From the UHGV virus genome UHGV-0093507: a stretch of DNA of 24,963 bases, one strand, 5' to 3'. This DNA comes from a virus. Position numbers and translations under genes: made by a program. The notes under the pieces were generated by a model, which did no database searches, was not told the origin of the DNA, and saw only the letters and a program-made list of their open reading frames with translations. Of the stretch, positions 5,769-24,507 are shown in pieces. Numbering within the stretch: position 1 is the stretch's first letter; each line of letters starts with the position of its first letter.

Positions 5769-6157
5769 GCCGGATAGGCTCCGTGTGGTAACTGAAAATG
5801 CGGTCCGTCTTTCAGGGTCTTCCAGTCGCCGCCCCATTCCACCGGAATATTCAGTTCCCGGCTGGCCTGTCTGAATGCTGCTGCGATTTTTTCGTACAGC
5901 GGCCATTCCCATGACACCTGGCTGCCGACATAAGCCACAACATCCACGGCATGCCCCGTAAGGTGGCGGCTGTTCATGGTCTGGCTCTTACCCGTGGCCA
6001 CCAGTTGCTTCTGGCGGTAACGGCTGCGCAACCCTTCGGTGATACCAAAATCCACTTCCGAGATTTCCAGTGCCCGTCGGGTCACTTTCACCAGATCAGG
6101 ATTTACGCCCTGCAAATTCTTTTCGCTCCGGCTGCTGAATTTAAATGTGTTGCTCAT
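5765..6157 (-). CDS. Endolysin, LAS/peptidase M15-type metallopeptidase (L-Ala-D-Glu endopeptidase-like), not a P2 K-type lysozyme
   Basis: 130-aa ORF with SRHLTGHAVDV metal-binding motif typical of M15 peptidases; sits between holin and spanins. Confidence 0.75.
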   Translation of the reverse strand: MSNTFKFSSRSEKNLQGVNPDLVKVTRRALEISEVDFGITEGLRSRYRQKQLVATGKSQTMNSRHLTGHAVDVVAYVGSQVSWEWPLYEKIAAAFRQASRELNIPVEWGGDWKTLKDGPHFQLPHGAYPA

Positions 6158-6477
6158 TCGTCCTTCTCCTTCACCCTGCGATTAAAGGCCGCAATAACCT
6201 TGTCGCGTGCTTTCTCTGCACCCATAAAACCGATTGATGCGCCGATAAACGTCACGGCATCTTCAGGAAACCCGAAGAAGCGCAACGACCCGGCCACGGC
6301 CATGGCAAGAACGCCGCACGCCAGCGATCCTGTTACGGTCTGAACCAGTGTTCGTCCGTCATAAAGACTCATCAGCGCGGAAATGCTGACTGCCGCGCCT
6401 ACTGCATACACCGTTGGCAGGTGGTCAAAGAGCCACGCAATAACCTGCTCTGTGATCCCTGTTTGAATGGTGCTCAC
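6154..6477 (-). CDS. Putative holin
   Basis: Putative GTG start at 6477, 3 nt after the gpX stop. About 107 aa, hydrophobic stretches (AVGAAVSISALM, GSLACGVLAMAVAGSL) and a charged C-terminus (RRVKEKDE). Lies directly upstream of the endolysin with 4-nt overlap. The start codon is uncertain. Confidence 0.55.
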   Translation of the reverse strand: MSTIQTGITEQVIAWLFDHLPTVYAVGAAVSISALMSLYDGRTLVQTVTGSLACGVLAMAVAGSLRFFGFPEDAVTFIGASIGFMGAEKARDKVIAAFNRRVKEKDE

Positions 6478-6479
6478 TG

Positions 6480-6686
6480 CTACTCCCCCCACAACTGAAT
6501 CATTTCTCGTTTCTTCTTCTCCGGCTCCGGCATCTCCACTTCCTGCCCGGCGTCCAGAAATACTTGCTGACAGAGTCCGGGGTTGGCATCCAGCACCTTT
6601 TCGGTGACGCCCTGCGTCGTGCCGTAGTACCGGAAACAGAGCGAATCCACGGTGTCGCCTTCCAGTGCCTTCACTTTCATCAGCAC
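6480..6686 (-). CDS. X: Tail protein X (P2 gpX-like)
   Basis: 68-aa ORF, size and position as P2 X between L and the lysis genes. Confidence 0.7.
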   Translation of the reverse strand: MLMKVKALEGDTVDSLCFRYYGTTQGVTEKVLDANPGLCQQVFLDAGQEVEMPEPEKKKREMIQLWGE

Positions 6687-10188: not shown

Positions 10189-11940
10189 ATGATTCAGGAC
10201 GCTTTTGTGCGCCAGCGTGCGCGGCAACTTTACTGGCAGGGTTATCCGCCCGCAGAAATATCACGTCTGATGGGAATAAACCCGAACACGATTTATGCGT
10301 GGAAAAAACGCGACCAGTGGGATGAAACGCCCCCCGTGCAGCGTGTCACGCAGTCCATCGATGCGCGCCTCATCCAGCTTACTGAAAAACAGAATAAAAC
10401 AGGCGGTGACTTTAAGGAAATAGACCTGCTGACCCGGCAGCTTAAAAAGCTGCATGATGGCCAGCCGGATGTGATGGCCGCAGGAAAGAAAGGCCGGGCG
10501 AAAAAACTTAAAAATCATTTCACGCCGGAACAGATTGCCGCACTGCGGGAAAAAATCATCAGCAGGCTGGAGTGGCATCAGCGGGGCTGGTTTGACTCCC
10601 TGACACTTTGCAGGGAAGCCGGGATACGTAACAGGATGATCCTGAAATCCCGACAGATTGGGGCGACCTGGTATTTTGCACAGGAAGCTCTGCTGATGGC
10701 GCTGCGTGACGATGTGGCGCAACCTTACCAGCGTAACCAGATTTTTTTGTCTGCGTCGCGTCGTCAGGCGTTCCAGTTTAAAAGCATTATTCAGAAGGCC
10801 GCGGCTGAAGTTGATGTGGAGCTGAAAGGGGGCGATAAAATCATCCTCTCCAACGGCGCAGAGCTGCATTTTCTCGGCACTTCTGCTGCGTCGGCACAGT
10901 CCTATACGGGCAATTTTTATTTTGATGAATTTTTCTGGGTCAGTCGCTTTGCTGAACTGCGCAAGGTGGCTGGCGCTATGGCAACCCTCAGCGGACTGCG
11001 GCGCACCTACTTCTCCACACCATCCACCGAAACGCACGAGGCGTACGCCTACTGGAACGGCGACCGCTGGAACGAGAAAAAGGCCTCGCATAAACGCCAG
11101 AGTTTTTCTGTGGACTGGAAAACGCTGCATAACGGGCTTATCTGCCCTGACCGGACTTGGCGGCAAATTGTCACGCTGGAAGATGTGGTTAATCACGGCT
11201 GGAAACACACCGATATCGACGAAATTCGTGATGAAAACACCGAAGACGAGTTCCTCAATCTCTATATGTGTGAGTTTGTCCGCGAAGGGGAATCGGCATT
11301 TAACCTGAATATCCTGATTGGCTGCGGTGTTGACGGATACGACGACTGGAAAGACTGGAAACCTTTTGCTCCCCGCCCGATGGGGAATCGTCCGGTATGG
11401 ATTGGGTATGACGCAAACGGCAGCAGTGGCAACGGCGACAGCGGTGCTGTGTCCGTGGTGGTTCCTCCGGCTGTTCCTGGTGGCCGTTTTCGAACGGTGG
11501 AGACGCGACGCGTTCAGGGGCTGGAGTTTGAAGAACAGGCCAGAGTCATTGAAGAGTTCACGTGTCGCTATAACGTGGAACACATCGGCATTGATGTGAC
11601 GGGCGGGAACGGGGAGGCTGTTTATCAGATAGTGAAACGGTTTTTCCCTGCTGCTATTCCGTACACCTTCACGCTGTCATCAAAACGGTCGCTGGTACTG
11701 AAAATGCTGCAAATAATGCGTGCCGGGCGGTGGGAATACGATCGCGCCGAACGCGAGCTGGTCGCGGCCTTTAACGCCGTGCGTAAGGTGAAAACACCGG
11801 GCGGCTTTATCACTTACGAAACGGACCGCGCGAGGGGGATCAGCCACGGCGACCTTGCGTGGGCAACCATGCTTGCTGTCATTAACGAACCGATTGGCGG
11901 CGAAGGAGAAAACGAGCGTTTCACGGTTATGGAGTTCTGA
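10189..11940 (+). CDS. P: Terminase large (ATPase) subunit (P2 gpP-like)
   Basis: 583-aa ORF; N-terminus MIQDAFVRQRARQLYWQGYPPAEISRLMGINPNTIYAWKKRDQWDE is characteristic of P2 gpP; RBS gggggag upstream; stop overlaps the Q start (TGATG). Confidence 0.9.
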   Translation: MIQDAFVRQRARQLYWQGYPPAEISRLMGINPNTIYAWKKRDQWDETPPVQRVTQSIDARLIQLTEKQNKTGGDFKEIDLLTRQLKKLHDGQPDVMAAGKKGRAKKLKNHFTPEQIAALREKIISRLEWHQRGWFDSLTLCREAGIRNRMILKSRQIGATWYFAQEALLMALRDDVAQPYQRNQIFLSASRRQAFQFKSIIQKAAAEVDVELKGGDKIILSNGAELHFLGTSAASAQSYTGNFYFDEFFWVSRFAELRKVAGAMATLSGLRRTYFSTPSTETHEAYAYWNGDRWNEKKASHKRQSFSVDWKTLHNGLICPDRTWRQIVTLEDVVNHGWKHTDIDEIRDENTEDEFLNLYMCEFVREGESAFNLNILIGCGVDGYDDWKDWKPFAPRPMGNRPVWIGYDANGSSGNGDSGAVSVVVPPAVPGGRFRTVETRRVQGLEFEEQARVIEEFTCRYNVEHIGIDVTGGNGEAVYQIVKRFFPAAIPYTFTLSSKRSLVLKMLQIMRAGRWEYDRAERELVAAFNAVRKVKTPGGFITYETDRARGISHGDLAWATMLAVINEPIGGEGENERFTVMEF

Positions 11941-12986
11941 TGAGCAGAAAAAATAAAAAAGTGCGCATGAGTTCACGCATTGATCTCGCTGATGCGCTCA
12001 GGAAAGAATCATCGCTCAGTGCATTCACATTTGATGGTCCTTATCGCCTGACCGGGCATGACCTGCTGGATAATATGTACTGTGCTGATAACGGGCGGTG
12101 GTATGAAACCCCGGTGGACTGGTACGGTCTGGCAAGAGCTGCCCGGCAAACGTCCTGGCATCAGTCTGCGCTTTACTTTAAGCGCAATGTATTACTCGGT
12201 TGCTACATCCCGCACCCGCTGCTTTCCCGGCAGGATTTCTCGGCGCTGGCGCTGGACTGGTTTGTGTTCGGTAACGCATTCCTTGAGCTTCGTAGCAATA
12301 TGCTCGGCGAACCGCTTAAATTACGGCACGCCCTGGCGAAATACATGCGACGCGGAAGCGATCTTGAATCATGGTGGTATGTGCAGGATGGCAAGGACGC
12401 GTTCCAGTTTCGTCCTGGCAAAGTGTGCCACCTGATGAATCCGGATATTAACCAGGAAATCTACGGCATGCCGGAATATCTTGGCGCATTACTCTCGGCC
12501 AGCCTTTCTCATTCGGCGGACATGTTCAGAAAACTGTACTACGACAACGGATCCCACGCCGGGTGCATCATCTACATCGGTGCAGCGCAGGTAAACCGCG
12601 AAAGCATGGACTCCCTGAAAGAAACGTTACAAGGTGCGCGTGGTGGTGGTGCGTTTAAAAACGTGCTCATCCACGCGCCCAACGGGGGCAAAGAGGGGGT
12701 GCAAATTTTGCCGTTCCAGCAGATCACCGCAAAGGATGAGTTCATGAATGTTAAGGCGGCATCCCGTGATGATGTGCTGGCTGCGCACCGCGTTCCGCCG
12801 CAACTGATGGGGGCAATGCCGGGCGAAAAAAGTGCGTTTGGTGATGTGGAGAAGGCCGCGCGGGTTTATGCAATTAACGAGCTGATGCCCGTTATGGAGG
12901 CCATGAAGCACATCAATGACTGGCTTGGCGAAGAGGTGATCCGTTTTAATTCTTATGCTCTTCTTGATGAAAAAACAGCCCCGTGA
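11940..12986 (+). CDS. Q: Portal vertex protein (P2 gpQ-like)
   Basis: 348-aa ORF, size and position as P2 Q; translationally coupled to P. Confidence 0.9.
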   Translation: MSRKNKKVRMSSRIDLADALRKESSLSAFTFDGPYRLTGHDLLDNMYCADNGRWYETPVDWYGLARAARQTSWHQSALYFKRNVLLGCYIPHPLLSRQDFSALALDWFVFGNAFLELRSNMLGEPLKLRHALAKYMRRGSDLESWWYVQDGKDAFQFRPGKVCHLMNPDINQEIYGMPEYLGALLSASLSHSADMFRKLYYDNGSHAGCIIYIGAAQVNRESMDSLKETLQGARGGGAFKNVLIHAPNGGKEGVQILPFQQITAKDEFMNVKAASRDDVLAAHRVPPQLMGAMPGEKSAFGDVEKAARVYAINELMPVMEAMKHINDWLGEEVIRFNSYALLDEKTAP

Positions 12987-13002
12987 TGGGGCTGTCCTTT
13001 TT
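12975..13002. terminator. Bidirectional rho-independent terminator between convergent Q and the 174-aa cargo gene
   Basis: Hairpin acagcccc-gtgat-ggggctgt (12975-12995) followed by a T-run on the plus strand and flanked by an A-run (T-run on the minus strand). The Q stop codon lies in the loop. Confidence 0.65.
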
Positions 13003-13525
13003 ACCAGAGTTGAACCATTTTCTGGGTGCCGTCAGGCTTGAGATTATCAATTTCAGAGAGAACGTAATATTGAATGGCTTCACAAACGGTGGTGTATGGT
13101 GACTTACCTTCTTTAAGTGGCACGATATTATTATTAACGCGAACCTGTATTTCATCGTTATACATTGCGATCGAAAGAGGAGTATGCACGAAGGCGACTT
13201 CGCCAGGTGTGTCGTCAACCACTGTCTCAATGCTGAAAATCAGTTTTCGCTCATCATTGCCGCCCCTTGCTTTGGGGGTGGCGGCAGGAATCTGAGATAA
13301 AGGCATTCTACGAAACCCTTCAGTTGTTTCCAGTCCGCATGAAACGTAATGCTGGCGATTACCGTCGCTATCCGTCCATGTCTGTGATGGCAGCTCCAGA
13401 GAGATTTCATAAGCATCAACAATTCCCTGGGCAATGCGTACAAGTGGGGTCAGGTCTTCATTGCGGCGAAAACTCTCCTTTACCTGATCTCGTTTTTCTC
13501 GTAACTGCTTGTAATTAATGACCAT
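13001..13525 (-). CDS. Hypothetical cargo protein, 174 aa, no family recognised
   Basis: ATG at 13525 is preceded by GGAGG at a 7-nt spacing, giving MVINYKQLREKRDQ…; the track ORF extends 13 codons further upstream. Visibly AT-richer than the phage backbone; convergent with Q. Confidence 0.5.
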   Translation of the reverse strand: MVINYKQLREKRDQVKESFRRNEDLTPLVRIAQGIVDAYEISLELPSQTWTDSDGNRQHYVSCGLETTEGFRRMPLSQIPAATPKARGGNDERKLIFSIETVVDDTPGEVAFVHTPLSIAMYNDEIQVRVNNNIVPLKEGKSPYTTVCEAIQYYVLSEIDNLKPDGTQKMVQLW

Positions 13526-14136
13526 AAAACAGCCTCCATTGATTTCTTTGCTCGTATTTTGCACTTATGAAGTGTGGTCGGCAAGGTGCCGCATCACTGA
13601 CGCGCTTCGCTTGTCTGCTGCTTCGCCGGGGCATAAAAAATTTATGCCCCGACTCTCCAGCTCCTGTATCAATCAGATAATTTCACGACGTCTTCCGACT
13701 TATCGCTATCATCGACGGCCAGACTCTTACACAATCCCGCCGCGCTGACTGCATGTTCTCGCCGCCTCAGTGCGATTTTGACGGCCTTACCTTTCACCCC
13801 ATCAAATCAGAACACCTTACGTCTTTTTCACGCTCAGCGTGAGCGATACAGCCATTCTGTTGTGTCGCTGCGACATCGTTCATGGAATGCTATTTACCCC
13901 CTGAAACGCGGGCTGTTCCCCCGTCACCTGCGCGCAGAAAAAACGCGTTTTTTTGTGCACGCACGGATCCTTGGCGGATCCAGCCGCCACGCGGGCCGGA
14001 AGGGCAAAAAGTCGTTCAAAAAAATTGTGCAAATTTGTGCACAATCTTGCATTAAAATCAACGTTCAGTGGATGTATTTAAGCGAAAAAAAGATCTTTGT
14101 ATAATTTCGTTCGGTTACGTTGGTGAGAGGTTCTGA

Positions 14137-14538
14137 GTGAAAGACATCACATATTGGAATGATAAAATTCAGAAACAAATTGATAGTTATCCTGAAGCTG
14201 TTCGAGAAAGGATAAATTTTGAGCTTGTTGCACTGCAGAGCGATTGTCCTCATTCTTTCGACAGTTTCGATTTTCCAGTGGATGGTGATGATGCCTTGGG
14301 GGTTCCACCTGCTCAAAAAAAATCAATGCGGGAAACGATTGGTCGCTACGCAATGCAATTAACCATCAAGAGTAGTGATTCTTATCGTATGATTTACGTT
14401 GCGAAATTTGCGGAGTCTGTTTACATACTTCATACATTTAAGAAAAAGACAAATGGTGTGTCAAAAAAAGAATATGAGACAGCTGCCGCAAGATACAAAC
14501 AATTAGTGGAGTATCGTCGTAAAAATGGCTTAAGATAG
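14137..14538 (+). CDS. Gp49-like / HigB-like RelE-superfamily toxin candidate
   Basis: GTG start with RBS gagagg upstream. C-terminal motif YRMIYVAKFAESVYILHTFKKKT…KKEYETAAARYKQL matches the Gp49-like (DUF891) pattern. A TATAAT hexamer at 14100-14105 and a ttgtgcaaatttgtgcaca repeat lie upstream. Confidence 0.6.
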   Translation: MKDITYWNDKIQKQIDSYPEAVRERINFELVALQSDCPHSFDSFDFPVDGDDALGVPPAQKKSMRETIGRYAMQLTIKSSDSYRMIYVAKFAESVYILHTFKKKTNGVSKKEYETAAARYKQLVEYRRKNGLR

Positions 14539-14608
14539 CTTGCAGGTATCTCAAATCTGATATAACATAATCAATGTCAGCAACATCGCTGATTAAGGCT
14601 GGAGAGTT

Positions 14609-14926
14609 ATGGAATTCGTCGTAGTCAAAAACCCTTATGCGTCATCAAGTAGCTCTGTAAATGAAGCTAGTGATAAACACATCCGGGCCCAATTAATGGT
14701 TATTATCCGAAAAATGATTCAGGAGCGCGGTCTTACCCAGCGAGAAGCTGCTGAATTGCTGGAAACAACCCAACCAAGAGTAAGCGAAATCATTAATGGT
14801 AAGTTAGATAATCATACCATTGATCGACTGTTTATCATGCTAAACATCCTGGGGTGGGATTTTAAGTTTGGGTATTCCGGTGGGGTTGTTACTGCGACGG
14901 CAGAACATTCCTGTCAGGTTGCATAA
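14609..14926 (+). CDS. XRE-family helix-turn-helix protein, HigA-like antitoxin/regulator candidate
   Basis: 105-aa ORF with HTH signature ERGLTQREAAELLETTQPRVSEIINGK; immediately downstream of the Gp49-like gene (toxin-first HigBA-type arrangement). Confidence 0.65.
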   Translation: MEFVVVKNPYASSSSSVNEASDKHIRAQLMVIIRKMIQERGLTQREAAELLETTQPRVSEIINGKLDNHTIDRLFIMLNILGWDFKFGYSGGVVTATAEHSCQVA

Positions 14927-15284: not shown

Positions 15285-15599
15285 TCATTCAGGAAAAAAT
15301 TCCTGAATATTCTTTTTTATTTGACTTATATTCTGATTTTTGCAACCAACAGGCTCGCTGTTATGCCAGCCCCATATGTGATTGTTGGCAGGCATATTTT
15401 CCCCCTCTGACCATTCAGCCAGCCAGTAAGCAAAGGCAGGATCGTTTTTAATGAGTGCCAGTCCAGCCAGAAATGCCGCGCGTTGCGCGCGGCTGCGTTC
15501 GGAGGCTGGCAGGCTGTCGAGATAATTACACGCTTCCCGTTCACTCTTGACTGCAGCTGGCTTCAGATAGAAACTTATCCGTCTGGTTGGTGTCGTCAT
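15285..15599 (-). CDS. parR: ParR-like partition adaptor (type II, actin-type partition system)
   Basis: ATG at 15599 with AAGGAG RBS overlapping the parM stop. 104 aa; the N-terminal segment RISFYLKPAAVKSEREACNYLDSLPASERSRAQRAAFLAGLAL resembles plasmid R1 ParR as recalled from memory. The track ORF is longer (149 aa, alternative upstream start). Confidence 0.6.
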   Translation of the reverse strand: MTTPTRRISFYLKPAAVKSEREACNYLDSLPASERSRAQRAAFLAGLALIKNDPAFAYWLAEWSEGENMPANNHIWGWHNSEPVGCKNQNISQIKKNIQEFFPE

Positions 15600-15603
15600 T
15601 GGT

Positions 15604-16563
15604 TTACTCCTTGTCCATTGCGTACAGCCCATTAACCAGAGCAAACTGTGGCACCCCGTCCGCGATGAAAGTCGCATTAACTCCGCAGGCTTCGCGGATA
15701 GCGGGTGCCACAATCTCCGCCCCTCCACCGACAACCATCACCCGCCCGTAACCCGAAAAACCCGCCAGCGCGCGGCTCACGCGTTGTTTCAGTGTTTCTT
15801 CCTTTTCACGAATAACCGCCATCAGGCTGTTGTAATGCGCGTCATTGTGGATGTGCTGGCGCAGCCAGGCTTCATCATGGCGATGTTCGATAATGGTATT
15901 GGCGATGTGGTGACTGGTACGCATACCGTTAGTGGCCATCACCGACAGTACGGCATCGGCCATCAGGGAAACGCCTACGTGTGGATCGCAAAACACCTGG
16001 CTGATACCTGCCAGTTGTCCCTGAACCTTTGCCACATCCAGCGTGGTTCCGCCTAAATCCACAATCAGCAGGGATTCAAACGGACTCATGTCAGCCAGTG
16101 CTTTAAAGCCAGCCGGAATGGATTCAGGCATAACCCGCACGTTACGGATAGTGAATGCCTCACCGTTCTGGTACTCCACCGGGCGCATAACGTTTGCTTT
16201 TTTGCGGTTGATGTTGGCCATGTCCGGCTGTGCGTTTGTGTCGAAATATTCGCTCAGTGGCAGGGTGACAACCACATCCACTTCCTGTGGTGTGATGCCT
16301 GATTTGACCAGCGCGTGATGAATGGCAATGACATTCACATCGCTGTACTGGTATTGCGTGTCGGTCGTCTGGACAAAGCGATCACTGACCGGATCAAAAC
16401 CATAGCGCACGCCATCAAGCATGTAGTTCGCGGGCTGCGTGCCACCGAACGGCGCAGACCATTCCGACTTGAAGCTGTTCGGGCTGATGGCGTTGCGGCG
16501 TTCGCCGTTCTCAGTCCATGCCAGCTTGATGTTGGTGGAGCCGTCATCGATACAAATTTTCAT
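15604..16563 (-). CDS. parM: ParM/StbA-like actin-like segregation ATPase
   Basis: 319-aa ORF; N-terminal phosphate-1 motif MKICIDDGSTNIKLAW plus later motifs (PESIPAG, IVDLGGTTLDV, VMVVGGGAE) resemble R1 ParM as recalled from memory; RBS aagga upstream. Confidence 0.8.
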   Translation of the reverse strand: MKICIDDGSTNIKLAWTENGERRNAISPNSFKSEWSAPFGGTQPANYMLDGVRYGFDPVSDRFVQTTDTQYQYSDVNVIAIHHALVKSGITPQEVDVVVTLPLSEYFDTNAQPDMANINRKKANVMRPVEYQNGEAFTIRNVRVMPESIPAGFKALADMSPFESLLIVDLGGTTLDVAKVQGQLAGISQVFCDPHVGVSLMADAVLSVMATNGMRTSHHIANTIIEHRHDEAWLRQHIHNDAHYNSLMAVIREKEETLKQRVSRALAGFSGYGRVMVVGGGAEIVAPAIREACGVNATFIADGVPQFALVNGLYAMDKE

Positions 16564-16597: not shown

Positions 16598-16712
16598 GCG
16601 GGATTCTGAAATCCCGTTTTTGCCTGTTTTATGCGCGCTTCATATATCGCGGCGCGTTTTTTGCTCATTTACGGGATTTGTGAATCCCGTTTCTGTCTGT
16701 TTTTTGTTTCCA
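16598..16712. repeat. Two ~42-bp direct repeats, each holding a 16-bp near-palindrome (gggattctgaaatccc / gggatttgtgaatccc) and a T-rich tail; copy 2 lies inside the 3' end of gene A
   Basis: Copy 1 16598-16640 (tgcgggattctgaaatcccgtttttgcctgtttt), copy 2 16670-16712 (tacgggatttgtgaatcccgtttctgtctgtttt). They sit immediately upstream of parM on its coding strand. Confidence 0.55.
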
Positions 16713-19507
16713 CTGGTCAGGCCACCCCGCAGCAGGTCTGCTTTGCGGCGGGCGCGTTCAGTAGTTTCACTGATTCTCTGTGCGTGCTCTGCGTCGCGGA
16801 TGGCGCGCAGCATGTCAGAAAGCACGGTAACGGGTGTTTTCATGGTGTTCTGGTCCTGCTGAAGTGTGGATGCCAGGCGTGCGGCGGCTTCGGGGTCTGA
16901 TGCCCCCAGCTGTTCCAGATAGCTGGCGACCGGGTTATGGCGGATCTCCGTACTGCTTACGCCGTGGTTACGGCTCAGGCGCTGCCAGAGCTGCGTGATC
17001 CGGCTGTCCGGTCGGGTATCCGGTTTGCGTACAATTTCAAATCCCTGCGGTGCAATGATGCTGCCGTCAACGTACAGACTGCCGCCCCGTAACAGGTGCT
17101 GCATCTGCTGTTCACCGATATGCAGGCCGAGAGATTCAGCAGACTCCCGCCATTCTTTAGCGAGTAATTCGTGGTTATCAGGCAAAGGCCGCTGCTGTTT
17201 GCGGCTCTGTGTCCAGCTCTGCATTTCATCACTGCTGTTTTTTGCCTGTTTGTCACGCAGCGAACGCATCAGCGCCCGGCGTTCGTGCCGTTTCAGTGAG
17301 CGCATCCATTCGTTCACTTCAACGCCGTCAGGGAGCTGCGGCCACGGTGCTGGCCGTTCTTCCGGCTGTTCTGTCCCGTTGTTGTCCGTTTCCTGTACAC
17401 GGGGACAGTTATTGCCACGAGTCCAAGGGGCGGCAGGGCCGCCCTGAAGGTCAAAACCATTTTCGCGGGCGCTGTCTTCCACTTCCGGTTTACGTCTTAC
17501 CAGCTTCCAGTTATCCGGATGCGTGCACACGCGGGAGGATTCCCCGATGAGTGGTGACCAGATCCCGTAAATCTGTACACTCTGTTCGCCGTAATCGTTC
17601 AGCTCATCTGCGAGGTCGTAGGCGGTGCGAATCAGGTAGTCCTTGCGCGGAACAAGTACGCCGCCCTGTTTCTCAATGTAGGTGGCAAAACACCCTGCAT
17701 CAGCGGCAGCGAGTACCGCATCCATTGCGTCATCCTTCAGCCGTTGCGGACCTTCCGGGTTGCGTGCCATCTGGCTGGCAAGGCGGCGCAGTTCACGCCA
17801 CACCTGACGGGAGGGGATGCCAAAGAACTGGAACTGGCGGACCCGGTGAAGGCGCGCCCAGCCGATGGCGCGTTCCACGCTCTCGGCCATTGATTTTCCG
17901 GTTTCGTGGTCAACGCGTGGCTTGCCCGTTTTCGGGTCGATGCCATCCACGGCGCGGCTGTCCAGGTTCTTTCCGATGTAGGTGGCGATGTAGCTGGTTG
18001 GCGTGCCTTTTGAGCCGTCTACGTACTCCGCCTTAAAACGCGGAGTTATGTCATCGCCCAGCTCGTGGCGGTCTTCCTGAATGGCAATATCGCAGACGTG
18101 GGACACGATGGTTTCAATCTCGTCCGGATGTGCAAAGACCATCATATGCCAGTGCACAGTGCCGTCATGGTGAGGCTCCACCGTGCGGATGCCATACCAG
18201 CGCAGACCGTCGCGGTTCAGTTTTTTGCGGACCGCCGCAAAAAACGTGTTAACCAGGTAATCGCTGGAGTCGCGCATGGTGGCCCCGTTCCATTTGGGGT
18301 TCGGATGACCGTTCTCTGTTGTGGCGTGGTATTTTGACGGGCAGGTGACAGTCAGAAACACCGCTCTGTCGCCACGGGCTTCGGCCAGAAGTTCCAGTCC
18401 CTTCATGGTGGCCATCATTTCTGCCTTACGGTGAACCGGGTTACTTACTCCCGCGTAATACACCGTCTCGAGATCAATCGTGAACCCGTCTTCATTTTCC
18501 AGCATGAAACTTTTCAGGAAATCGCGTGTTTTCTCGCGCTGTGCGCGAAACTCGCTTAACGCGTCCTGGCTCAGATAGGGTGATGTTTTTCTGGAAACCA
18601 GACAGGCGGCGCGGAGTTGTTCTTCTCTCCACTCGCAACGTAACAGCCACAGTTTGCGTTTCCACCATTCCGCACAGGTCAGGCGAAGGATTGTGCCCGG
18701 CAGCAGCTCCGTGTCCGGTTCGTTCCTCCGGTCTTTATCTGTTGTCAGTGCGTCATAATGTGGAGGCATGGCGTGCAGGTGTAACGCCATGCGGGCCAGC
18801 ATCTGATACGCCTTCAGCGTTACATCCATGGTCAGTTCGCCATCAGTCGCGCCAAAGCCATCGCAGAGTTTTTCGAAGGTGCTGCTGAACATCGCCGCCG
18901 TCATGGTGGCCAGCGTCTGTATCTGGTGTTTGTTGAGCTGCGGCAGGTAAAGCAAATCGTCCAGGCGTTCGCGTCCGGCAAGGGAGCGATAACCCGGTGT
19001 CAGCCAGCGGCTGTCGGTGCGGTCCAGACGTTCGAATATTTTGCGCAGGGTTCCGCGTGTATAGCGTTCCGCCTGCCAGCTCTTTTTGCCTTTCTGACGA
19101 TCGGCTTCCTGCTTCTTGCGCAGGAAAGAGAGGTGGCGGCTCAGAGGTTCTCGCAGATAAACGGGAAGCGCCTTCAGTGTGGCAAAGGCACGGGCTACCG
19201 GGTCTTGTTCTGTTGCCCGGCGCTTACTGATGATGCTCTGTGCCAGCTTTTCACGCTGTCCGGCTTCCTCAAGGGATGCCATGAGTTTTTTACCCATGGC
19301 GGATTGTGCGAAAAAGGCTTCTTCCTTCGCTTCCTGTTCTTCCTGTGCCCTTTTGTCCGCCTCAAGGTAGTAACGGATGGCGCGTTGCAGGTCGGTTTCA
19401 GTTTCCTGCCTGCGCTCCGTAAATCTGGCCGGATCAATAGCTGGTCGTGGTTCATTCCAGCTCCATGCAAACTCACTCATGGCTGGTATCCCGTCACGCG
19501 CTGCCAC
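16640..19507 (-). CDS. A: Replication initiation endonuclease (P2 gpA-like rolling-circle initiator)
   Basis: 955-aa ORF with HUH-type motif (…DGTVHWHMMVFAHPDE…); last large gene of the early operon. Confidence 0.8.
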   Translation of the reverse strand: MAARDGIPAMSEFAWSWNEPRPAIDPARFTERRQETETDLQRAIRYYLEADKRAQEEQEAKEEAFFAQSAMGKKLMASLEEAGQREKLAQSIISKRRATEQDPVARAFATLKALPVYLREPLSRHLSFLRKKQEADRQKGKKSWQAERYTRGTLRKIFERLDRTDSRWLTPGYRSLAGRERLDDLLYLPQLNKHQIQTLATMTAAMFSSTFEKLCDGFGATDGELTMDVTLKAYQMLARMALHLHAMPPHYDALTTDKDRRNEPDTELLPGTILRLTCAEWWKRKLWLLRCEWREEQLRAACLVSRKTSPYLSQDALSEFRAQREKTRDFLKSFMLENEDGFTIDLETVYYAGVSNPVHRKAEMMATMKGLELLAEARGDRAVFLTVTCPSKYHATTENGHPNPKWNGATMRDSSDYLVNTFFAAVRKKLNRDGLRWYGIRTVEPHHDGTVHWHMMVFAHPDEIETIVSHVCDIAIQEDRHELGDDITPRFKAEYVDGSKGTPTSYIATYIGKNLDSRAVDGIDPKTGKPRVDHETGKSMAESVERAIGWARLHRVRQFQFFGIPSRQVWRELRRLASQMARNPEGPQRLKDDAMDAVLAAADAGCFATYIEKQGGVLVPRKDYLIRTAYDLADELNDYGEQSVQIYGIWSPLIGESSRVCTHPDNWKLVRRKPEVEDSARENGFDLQGGPAAPWTRGNNCPRVQETDNNGTEQPEERPAPWPQLPDGVEVNEWMRSLKRHERRALMRSLRDKQAKNSSDEMQSWTQSRKQQRPLPDNHELLAKEWRESAESLGLHIGEQQMQHLLRGGSLYVDGSIIAPQGFEIVRKPDTRPDSRITQLWQRLSRNHGVSSTEIRHNPVASYLEQLGASDPEAAARLASTLQQDQNTMKTPVTVLSDMLRAIRDAEHAQRISETTERARRKADLLRGGLTSGNKKQTETGFTNPVNEQKTRRDI

Positions 19508-23174: not shown

Positions 23175-23483
23175 ATGCTTATCGGTGAAAAAATTAGAGT
23201 GATTCGTGAATCAGAGGATTTAACGCGCGAAGAATTTTGCGGCCTGATTGATGTGCCTATCGGCACTTTGCGTCGTTATGAAACGGGGAGGATTGAAAAC
23301 ATAGGTGGCGAAGTGCTTATCAAGATTGTTAATCACCCTCGCTTTTTTAAGTACATGAATTGGCTTATGACGGGAAAAACAAATGAGGCTGCTGGGCAGA
23401 TCAGTCCGTCTCTCTCCCCTGATGGGCCAAAAAGCACATCGCCTTCTCAAAAACCCCGCAAGACTGGCACACAGCCCGGCTAA
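23175..23483 (+). CDS. C: Immunity repressor (P2 C-like)
   Basis: ATG at 23175 directly after the second operator. HTH segment (…REEFCGLIDVPIGTLRRYETG…) and C-terminal HPRFFKYMNWLMTGKTNEAAGQISPSL resemble P2 C as recalled from memory; the track ORF starts 12 codons further upstream. Confidence 0.7.
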   Translation: MLIGEKIRVIRESEDLTREEFCGLIDVPIGTLRRYETGRIENIGGEVLIKIVNHPRFFKYMNWLMTGKTNEAAGQISPSLSPDGPKSTSPSQKPRKTGTQPG

Positions 23484-23532
23484 TCATGGAGCGCTGGGGG
23501 CATGGTGGTCTTGTAACGCTGGGGTTTCACGA

Positions 23533-24507
23533 ATGAGCATAAAATCAATTCCGGGAGGGTATCTTCTTGACATGCGCCCGGAGGGGCGTAAAGGCAAACG
23601 CATTCGTAAAAAATTTAAAACGAAATCGGATGCAGTTTTATATGAGCGGTGGGTGCTGGCGCAACAGCATAACAATGAGTGGAAAGGAAACTCCATTGAT
23701 CGCCGTCCGCTGTCAGTGCTTATTGACTTGTGGTGGAAATACCACGGCCAGCTAATGAAGTCAGGGCATAACACGCGCCTTAAATTGCTGCGCTTGAGTG
23801 AGGCAATGGATGACCCGTGCGTGCATAAACTTAATACAACGATGCTCACCGAGCTACGTGTGTCCAGGATAGAGCAGGGGATACAGCCCAGCACCATAAA
23901 TCGAGAGATTGGGGCGTTAAGCGCGATGTTTACCGCACTCATCTCATCCGGCCATTTTCTTAACGATAACCCCGTTCAAGGCCTTAAAGGAATGAAGGTT
24001 AACGAGCGCGAAATGGGATATCTGAGTAAGTCTGAATGTGTTCAGTTGCTGGATGCACTGGCTGAAAATCCCGATGAACGGCTGGCTGTCGAAATCCTTC
24101 TGTCGACCGGGGCGCGATGGGGCGAGGTAGCGGCACTGGAGCAGCGCCGTGTTCTTCATTGTCGAATCACTTTTTCAAAAACGAAGAACAGCAAAAACCG
24201 TACCGTTCCTATTTCTGAAAGCCTGTTTGAAAAGATCAAAAAACGGGGCGGGAAACTGGTGTTTCCGACGCTGGATTATCCATTGGTTCGCGATGTCATC
24301 AAAACGGTCGCACCTGATGTTCCTGATGGCCAGGCTGTTCATGCGCTGCGCCACACCTTCGCCAGTCATTTCATGATGAACGGCGGCAATATTCTGACGC
24401 TCCAGAAAATTCTGGGGCACGCAAAGATTCAGACAACGATGATTTATGCCCATCTTGCGCCGGATTACTTGCAGGATGCGGTGAGATTTAATCCTATTGC
24501 TGGGTAA
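23533..24507 (+). CDS. int: Tyrosine integrase (P2 Int-like site-specific recombinase)
   Basis: ATG at 23533 gives MSIKSIPGGYLLDMRPEGRKGKRIRKKFKTKSDA…; C-terminal catalytic signature …HALRHTFASHFMMNGG…LGHAKIQTTMIYAHL (R-H-R-Y family); downstream of C as in P2. Confidence 0.9.
   Translation: MSIKSIPGGYLLDMRPEGRKGKRIRKKFKTKSDAVLYERWVLAQQHNNEWKGNSIDRRPLSVLIDLWWKYHGQLMKSGHNTRLKLLRLSEAMDDPCVHKLNTTMLTELRVSRIEQGIQPSTINREIGALSAMFTALISSGHFLNDNPVQGLKGMKVNEREMGYLSKSECVQLLDALAENPDERLAVEILLSTGARWGEVAALEQRRVLHCRITFSKTKNSKNRTVPISESLFEKIKKRGGKLVFPTLDYPLVRDVIKTVAPDVPDGQAVHALRHTFASHFMMNGGNILTLQKILGHAKIQTTMIYAHLAPDYLQDAVRFNPIAG

Follow-up and report, generated by a model that had tools for sequence, protein, structure and literature searches.

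A putative moron-type cassette carrying a single gene of phrog_5091 at the portal-cos junction of P88-like prophages

Two groups of described systems come closest to the small gene considered here. The first are the classical phage morons, of which lambda bor and lom and HK97 gp15 are examples; Juhala and colleagues are said to have treated such genes in 2000. The second are the tin and old genes of phage P2. In the P2 annotation, the old-tin segment begins beside cosR and reads toward gene A; the gap between cosL and Q on the other side holds a terminator only. In Rousset et al. (2022), the P2 defence hotspot is drawn as the whole interval between gpQ and gpA, and its commonest ‘system’ is a plasmid-partition pair of ParM/StbB type, with 4592 occurrences.

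The window, by which we mean the whole stretch of 24,963 nt from virus genome UHGV-0093507 that was analysed, is a P88-type prophage (Xuanwuvirus) within the P2 family. The genes for terminase P (10189-11940) and portal Q (11940-12986) lie on the plus strand; converging with Q, on the minus strand, is a 174-aa open reading frame (ORF174; 13001-13525, ATG at 13525-13523, TAA at 13003-13001), the two stop codons being separated by 14 nt. Next come cos-proximal backbone sequence kept in all P88-like phages (13592-14063), a RelE/ParE-type toxin of 133 aa with an HTH antitoxin of 105 aa (14137-14926, plus strand), a ParM/StbA and StbB plasmid-partition pair (15285-16563, minus strand), the replication endonuclease gpA (16640-19507, minus strand) and the integrase (23383-24507). 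The HTH antitoxin has a weak PADLOC match to the candidate system PDC-M64C (E = 5e-5).

Alignment with P88, P88_4B11 and PhiR44_2 delimits an insert of 623 bp relative to P88 (12969-13591). Homology with P88 and P88_4B11 breaks after the Q codons for ...LLD (window 12968) and restarts at 13592, outside the cassette; between these points lie a five-codon Q tail with its stop codon, a terminator, ORF174, its ribosome-binding site and 66 bp of upstream sequence. The 3' end of Q (12969-12986, plus strand) is replaced, so that the portal ends in ...LLDEKTAP* in the window and in ...LLDTQPTS* in P88. The insert has 46% GC, against 53-54% in its flanks, and a GC3 of 44%, against 60% in Q and P. It is present in PhiR44_2, 705R2 and 569R5, and absent from P88, P88_4B11, 520873, 500465-2, Chuche and 503458; in seven cassette-less phages the cos-proximal sequence (query positions 64-538) directly adjoins the portal gene. 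Phages with and without the gene are otherwise about 92% identical. On the side of the portal, the insert rewrites the last five residues (...DEKTAP vs ...DTQPTS), and carriers and non-carriers differ systematically in their C-termini.

The same polymorphism is seen at larger scale. This backbone is present in 1146 complete E. coli genomes; the junction is filled in 397 of them (counted by a cassette probe) and empty in 712 (counted by a short P88 junction probe), and about a third of P88-like prophages maintain the insert. These counts describe a nearly two-state polymorphism: the Q-cos junction is a near-binary indel, unlike a many-cargo hotspot. The preliminary description of this locus had raised the question of variation between near-identical prophages, and there the answer is plain. 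A 60%-identical copy of Salmonella type (L004) occupies the same Q-convergent site in a P2-like phage, with a different bidirectional terminator. The cassette is a long resident of the Q-cos junction and is under selection.

How does this compare with tin and old? Like them, ORF174 is non-essential cargo that a P2-family phage carries close to cos and that some related phages have and others lack; its product, like Tin, is small, soluble and without recognisable domains. The geometry differs, however. With respect to cos, ORF174 is on the other side and points the other way, in the cosL-Q gap that is normally empty; and its site has one cargo, whereas the gpA-gpQ interval has hundreds of arrangements. 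The tin/old position in which the gene had been placed at first is taken, in slot and orientation, by the RelE/HTH pair at 14137-14926, which starts beside cos and reads toward gpA. Nor does ORF174, at 174 aa, have the ABC ATPase and TOPRIM domains of OLD. The gene had also been called a hotspot occupant next to cos. It is indeed inside the gpQ-gpA interval, but on the Q side of cos and outside the many-cargo slot; and ‘next to cos’ holds approximately, at the distance given below. In Table S5A of Rousset et al. (2022), the ORF174 protein (WP_001407222) is entered as ‘hypothetical’.

The position of cos is itself presumed. The linear record of the P88-type phage P88_4B11 terminates at window position 14006, about 480 bp upstream of the ORF174 ATG, and from that record we presume a cos end at about 14006; a search for the P2 cos 19-mer, with up to 3 mismatches allowed, gave no match. 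Conservation with other P88-like prophages stops at about 14064, and the variable region proper begins there, on the far side of cos. The backbone between the insert and that point has features of its own. A perfect 10+3+10 palindrome, GGGGCATAAAAAATTTATGCCCC (13628-13650), folds at -24 kcal/mol with a T-run on neither strand; it is invariant across the aligned P88-like phages and is the first hairpin past the Q stop in the cassette-less P88. It is a possible native terminator for Q, or else an element used in packaging. Two dyads of the form TGT-N12-ACA, the pattern of Ogr/Delta activator sites, lie at 13858-13875 and 14026-14043, either side of the presumed cos end, the second (TGTGCAAATTTGTGCACA) within a longer repeat of a TGTGCA motif. 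The whole window has 4 such dyads where 6.3 are expected, which is not above chance, and none is suitably placed as an ORF174 promoter.

ORF174 has several marks of a moron: presence or absence among close relatives, deviant GC, its own terminator and perhaps a promoter, and a place between conserved late-region genes. A difference lies in the product, since most characterised morons encode membrane or surface proteins whereas that of ORF174 is predicted to be cytosolic. From type II toxin-antitoxin systems the cassette differs in having one gene, not two adjacent co-transcribed small genes. The alignments and composition mark ORF174 as the single cargo of what would be an autonomous, horizontally acquired cassette of moron type, set into the last codons of the portal gene.

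That ORF174 is a real gene under purifying selection is clear on several grounds. Its dN/dS is 0.08-0.14 against E. coli alleles (dS up to 0.24), and 0.18 between two distant family homologues; in a search of 5426 complete E. coli genomes, all 397 copies were full length and chromosomal. A Shine-Dalgarno GGAGG, read from the sequence, lies 7 nt upstream of the ATG (13533-13537, minus strand). The reading frame and this signal are thus as first described. The product has a calculated mass of 19.8 kDa and a pI of 5.1; neither a signal peptide nor a transmembrane segment was found in it, the highest Kyte-Doolittle mean over 19 residues being 0.99. It should be a mildly acidic, cytosolic protein of about 20 kDa.

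The terminator is shared with Q. It spans 12970-13003 and is read on both strands, with a stem-loop at 12975-12995, an A-run at 12970-12975 and a T-run at 12998-13002; the TGA of Q (12984-12986) sits in the loop. The hairpin folds at -17.3 kcal/mol on the plus strand and -19.9 on the minus strand (z of -5.0 and -6.3), and none of 200 shuffles folded equally well; a terminator scan detected it on the plus strand and a purpose-made scanner on the minus strand. The folding energies on both strands bear out the proposal that the terminator common to Q and ORF174 is bidirectional. Alignment to P88-type phages shows that this hairpin arrived with the insert.

Control at the other end of the gene is less clear. 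The cassette in the window has no co-oriented gene upstream of ORF174, and the early operon is separated from it by cos and by the opposing toxin-antitoxin pair; some local promoter is therefore needed. A candidate, weak sigma-70 promoter lies at 13556-13584 on the minus strand: TTGCCG (13584-13579), a 17-nt spacer and CAAAAT (13561-13556), with 8 of 12 matches and a score below the promoter-scan threshold. The same geometry, TTGnnn-17-CAAAAT, is found in the 60%-identical Salmonella-type cassette. A ‘-10 box’ that seemed to recur throughout the family, about 31 nt ahead of the ATG, was set aside: in the alignment it coincides with the start codon (TAxxATG) from which distant members translate a conserved N-terminal extension of 12 codons, with a Shine-Dalgarno sequence of their own. 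In the window, CAAAAT (13561-13556) may then descend from an earlier, upstream start codon; the conserved hexamer being open to this reading, we rate the promoter as unproven. A homologous in-frame extension, of 13 codons, is open here as well (13526-13564, minus strand; GTG at 13564, giving a 187-aa ORF), with no Shine-Dalgarno sequence, and it is closed by stop codons in L004 and in L012, another P2-like prophage. It is probably not used in the window. Distant members of the family (L020, L022, L025, L026, L028, L036, L038 and others) have two in-frame starts 12 codons apart, the upstream one 36 nt before the conserved ATG; each has an SD-like sequence (AGGTGG...ATG, then GGAGAA...ATG), and two isoforms could result.

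ORF174 belongs to phrog_5091, a family of unknown function that has neither a Pfam entry nor a solved structure. It matches the profile in PHROGs v4 with E = 1.4e-65 (221 bits), residues 1-168 covering positions 1-164 of 164, and all 63 aligned relatives match it also. Its close homologues, at 60-98% identity, come from E. coli, E. albertii, Yersinia enterocolitica and Salmonella, and each is named ‘hypothetical protein’; an exhaustive profile search over 1.84 billion representatives gave 77 hits, most of 155-175 aa and 22-36% identity. Length and motifs are kept across these 77 cluster representatives, down to 22% identity. Where hosts are named they belong to the Enterobacterales, with Providencia, Xenorhabdus and Klebsiella among them. 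Conserved positions are Y39, S42, L43, L45, W50, G55, Y60, V61, F97 and T101; a TVVDD-P-GG hairpin (with its DD pair) and a VC..IK helix are fairly conserved besides. The near-invariant residues are for the most part hydrophobic or aromatic, with S42, G55 and T101 as the polar exceptions; the conserved positions as a whole include no obvious catalytic set.

The absence of a recognisable motif, as first reported, stands: Pfam, NCBIfam and PADLOC-DB v2 returned no match to ORF174, and phrog_5091 is the only family that it joins. The sole Pfam match at E <= 10, to Complex1_LYR, was judged spurious. Among the 63 relatives there was no Pfam or NCBIfam match, and PADLOC gave one marginal match (1/63, E = 0.009). 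Searches of the PDB by single sequence and by profile returned designed helical repeats and marginal matches only, which we treat as compositional. Homology to a virion, replication, lysis or packaging family, which would have counted against the preliminary reading, was not found. In the papers found, phrog_5091, WP_001407222 and A0A0C5EXS4 are not mentioned.

Structure prediction adds a general resemblance. Two AlphaFold models (pLDDT 73 and 79) show two helices, an antiparallel sheet and a C-terminal helix. The matches in structure searches were capping protein (6.1-6.7), CFAP97D1 (6.3-6.5), Med17 (6.0-6.3), P1 DarA (5.5-6.0) and T3SS chaperones (about 5), at just 4-11% sequence identity; a BFVD search gave no match. 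The alpha+beta likeness extends to FP-domain and capping-protein-like docking modules (PI31 4ouh, Fbxo7 4l9c, CapZ 4akr). On these scores the predicted fold would resemble only a generic alpha+beta docking module. DarA (9vz0_I), an anti-restriction protein internal to the P1 head, differs in being a processed head protein of 639 aa, where ORF174 has 174 aa. As homologues, P1 DarA (hhalign probability 0.3%), P1 LydB and P1 Hdf (<1% each) and P2 Tin (0.4%) were all rejected.

The relatives are informative in their surroundings. Family members are single genes, and no partner gene is conserved across contexts. In P2-like phages they lie at the Q-cos junction, 94 nt after gpA, or 12 nt after ogr; in lambdoid prophages they separate the lysis cassette from the terminase genes or immediately precede the holin gene; some members follow spanin or another lysis gene at 23-70 nt; in prophages with an E217-like tail module they occupy the gap between tail chaperone and tape measure (L020) or that between spike and sheath initiator (L024). 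Another has further cargo for neighbours, namely PixA and an Ant-like gene. Of the phages other than this one, at least half have a co-oriented lytic-cycle gene 11-100 nt ahead of the family member, so that lytic co-transcription is plausible in those phages. Of 23 non-redundant family genes, 19 have a hairpin with a T-run within 110 nt of the 3' end; of 255 control ORFs, taken from the rest of the same loci, 47 (18%) do (Fisher p = 6e-10). By this frequency the family gene is characteristically the last in its transcription unit, with its own terminator. Every context with recognisable phage genes resembles a prophage or temperate phage. Three diverse family queries against 50,697 phage records found four P2-like temperate phages only, and no member in any virulent phage among them.

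Some of these loci have further cargo. Neighbouring toxin-antitoxin pairs (RelE/HTH, YafO, HicAB, Phd/Fic) are separate units that vary between loci. Orthologous hicAB pairs (62-66% aa identity) lie directly downstream of the phrog_5091 gene in two P2-like prophages (L012, 6738-7369; L017, 6725-7359), with repeated operator-like TGACTTCAT motifs upstream; family gene and hicAB together follow gpA in one and ogr in the other. HicAB was considered as a partner and rejected: it is found at only two loci, as separate units, and is absent from the remaining loci. On soil or metagenome contigs (L014-L016), a 174-aa member at 6001-6525 stands alone, flanked by a choline-sulfatase/OpuAC operon and by a gene for an epimerase; phage genes are lacking for 6 kb around. 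This copy may be domesticated, or else a remnant.

One way to understand ORF174 begins with the protein itself. It has no database family match that would suggest an enzyme; its conserved residues are mostly hydrophobic or aromatic, its pI is 5.1, and it has no membrane or signal segment. From these features we infer a non-enzymatic binding protein. Such a protein would bind another protein stoichiometrically, through a predicted fold of a kind used elsewhere for dimerisation and docking. It would be made from the prophage, to the benefit of the lysogen, and a competing phage would be blocked; that is, the logic would be that of P2 Tin, a small soluble protein that poisons part of the incoming phage, gp32 in the case of T-even phages. 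The protein of ORF174 is unrelated to Tin. A distribution confined to temperate phages, a base composition like that of cargo, the stand-alone unit in the window and the company of toxin-antitoxin and other cargo genes favour a role of this sort, and benefit to the lysogen, for example by exclusion of competing phages, is the reading to which we tentatively lean.

Several points count against this reading. The candidate promoter is weak (8/12), falls below the scan threshold and has a -10 hexamer that may be a start-codon fossil; and the position of family genes behind lytic-cycle genes elsewhere suggests lytic rather than lysogenic expression. No known defence model was matched by PADLOC. Most single-gene defence proteins are larger and have an effector domain, which counts against exclusion as well. 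In the portions of the sources consulted, WP_001407222 is not among the DefensePredictor supplementary data, and in the supplements of Rousset et al. (2022) ORF174 was not found among the listed systems beyond its entry in Table S5A, a comparison of its N-terminal string with the summary table included. A defence or exclusion role had been proposed at the outset from position, with tin and old as models. What survives of that argument is that ORF174 is optional accessory cargo; similarity to Tin or to a PADLOC model does not accompany it. Moreover, the Q-cos junction being a near-binary indel, the defence base rate of the many-cargo slot is not directly transferable to it, and the positions of relatives at the 3' ends of lytic operons mean that a lytic-cycle role fits equally well. 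A defence role for ORF174 is possible.

A second perspective turns the benefit around. The protein could be made in lytic growth, as a counter-defence or host-takeover inhibitor that neutralises a host immune protein or other host factor, and the phage would gain. Family members are typically the last genes of lytic units (after ogr, gpA or lysis genes, or at the spike/sheath initiator), and a small, soluble, acidic-leaning, single-domain protein without catalytic motifs has the typical anti-defence profile. The locus in the window accommodates this less well: ORF174 is convergent with the late operon and cut off from the early operon by cos and the opposing toxin-antitoxin pair, and so cannot ride on a lytic transcript. 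Nor does an aca-like regulator adjoin it, and hhalign probabilities against DarA, Hdf and LydB are all below 1%. Anti-defence genes are usually common in virulent phages; yet the three queries found no virulent phage among the 50,697 records. We think this reading unlikely, if still worth serious attention, and slightly favour prophage-encoded exclusion above it.

A third supposes lysogenic conversion unrelated to phages, with altered host physiology, stress tolerance or virulence as the outcome. The moron architecture suits it, as does the frequent adjacency to toxin-antitoxin modules; and the gene is common in E. coli pathotypes, carriers including STEC O145 and O111, O55:H7, ST131 and ETEC. 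That spread probably mirrors the prevalence of P2-like prophages, however, and the protein has no signal peptide, membrane anchor or similarity to an effector or regulator, which leaves conversion of this kind quite improbable.

Alternatively, ORF174 might be an accessory to morphogenesis or lysis: a dispensable chaperone-like or virion-internal protein that helps particles to assemble or to deliver their DNA, or improves the timing of lysis. In almost every phage context the family gene has head, packaging, lysis or tail genes for neighbours; the predicted fold resembles T3SS-chaperone and docking modules and a segment of DarA; and in distant members a second in-frame start is present, both starts having SD-like sequences. 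Such an arrangement is known from holin/antiholin pairs. Against this, position relative to structural genes varies within one phage type (tail chaperone in L020, spike in L024), the gene is missing from 712 closely related E. coli prophages, the terminator of its own and low GC are the marks of cargo, no membrane segment is present, and one relative lies at a non-phage chromosomal site. Such a role is distinctly improbable. That ORF174 is a functionless passenger or a mis-called ORF, as a gene never named and with a weak promoter might be, is very improbable indeed: the selection data (dN/dS of 0.08-0.18, 397 of 397 E. coli copies full length), the strong ribosome-binding site and the length and motifs kept in 77 representatives largely refute it.

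It is possible, though doubtful, that phrog_5091 as a whole is a hitherto unrecognised single-protein phage-conflict family with its own fold, serving either exclusion or counter-defence, and carried as a self-terminated one-gene cassette that hops between operon ends of unrelated temperate phages of Enterobacterales (P2-like, lambdoid and E217-like). If exclusion or counter-defence is the true role, a small single-protein system without recognisable domains would join the P2-family repertoire. P88, which is without the gene, and PhiR44_2, which has it, form a natural isogenic pair.

ORF174 is variable accessory cargo of its phages and, by its sequence features, probably an unstudied moron within a PHROG of unknown function. 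It occurs in about 7% of the complete E. coli genomes, with ST131 and several STEC lineages among the carriers. Two different things make up the gpQ-gpA interval: toward gene A, beyond cos, a slot with many kinds of cargo, and between cos and Q a separate near-binary indel. A survey in which the two are pooled would assign ORF174 to neighbouring systems.
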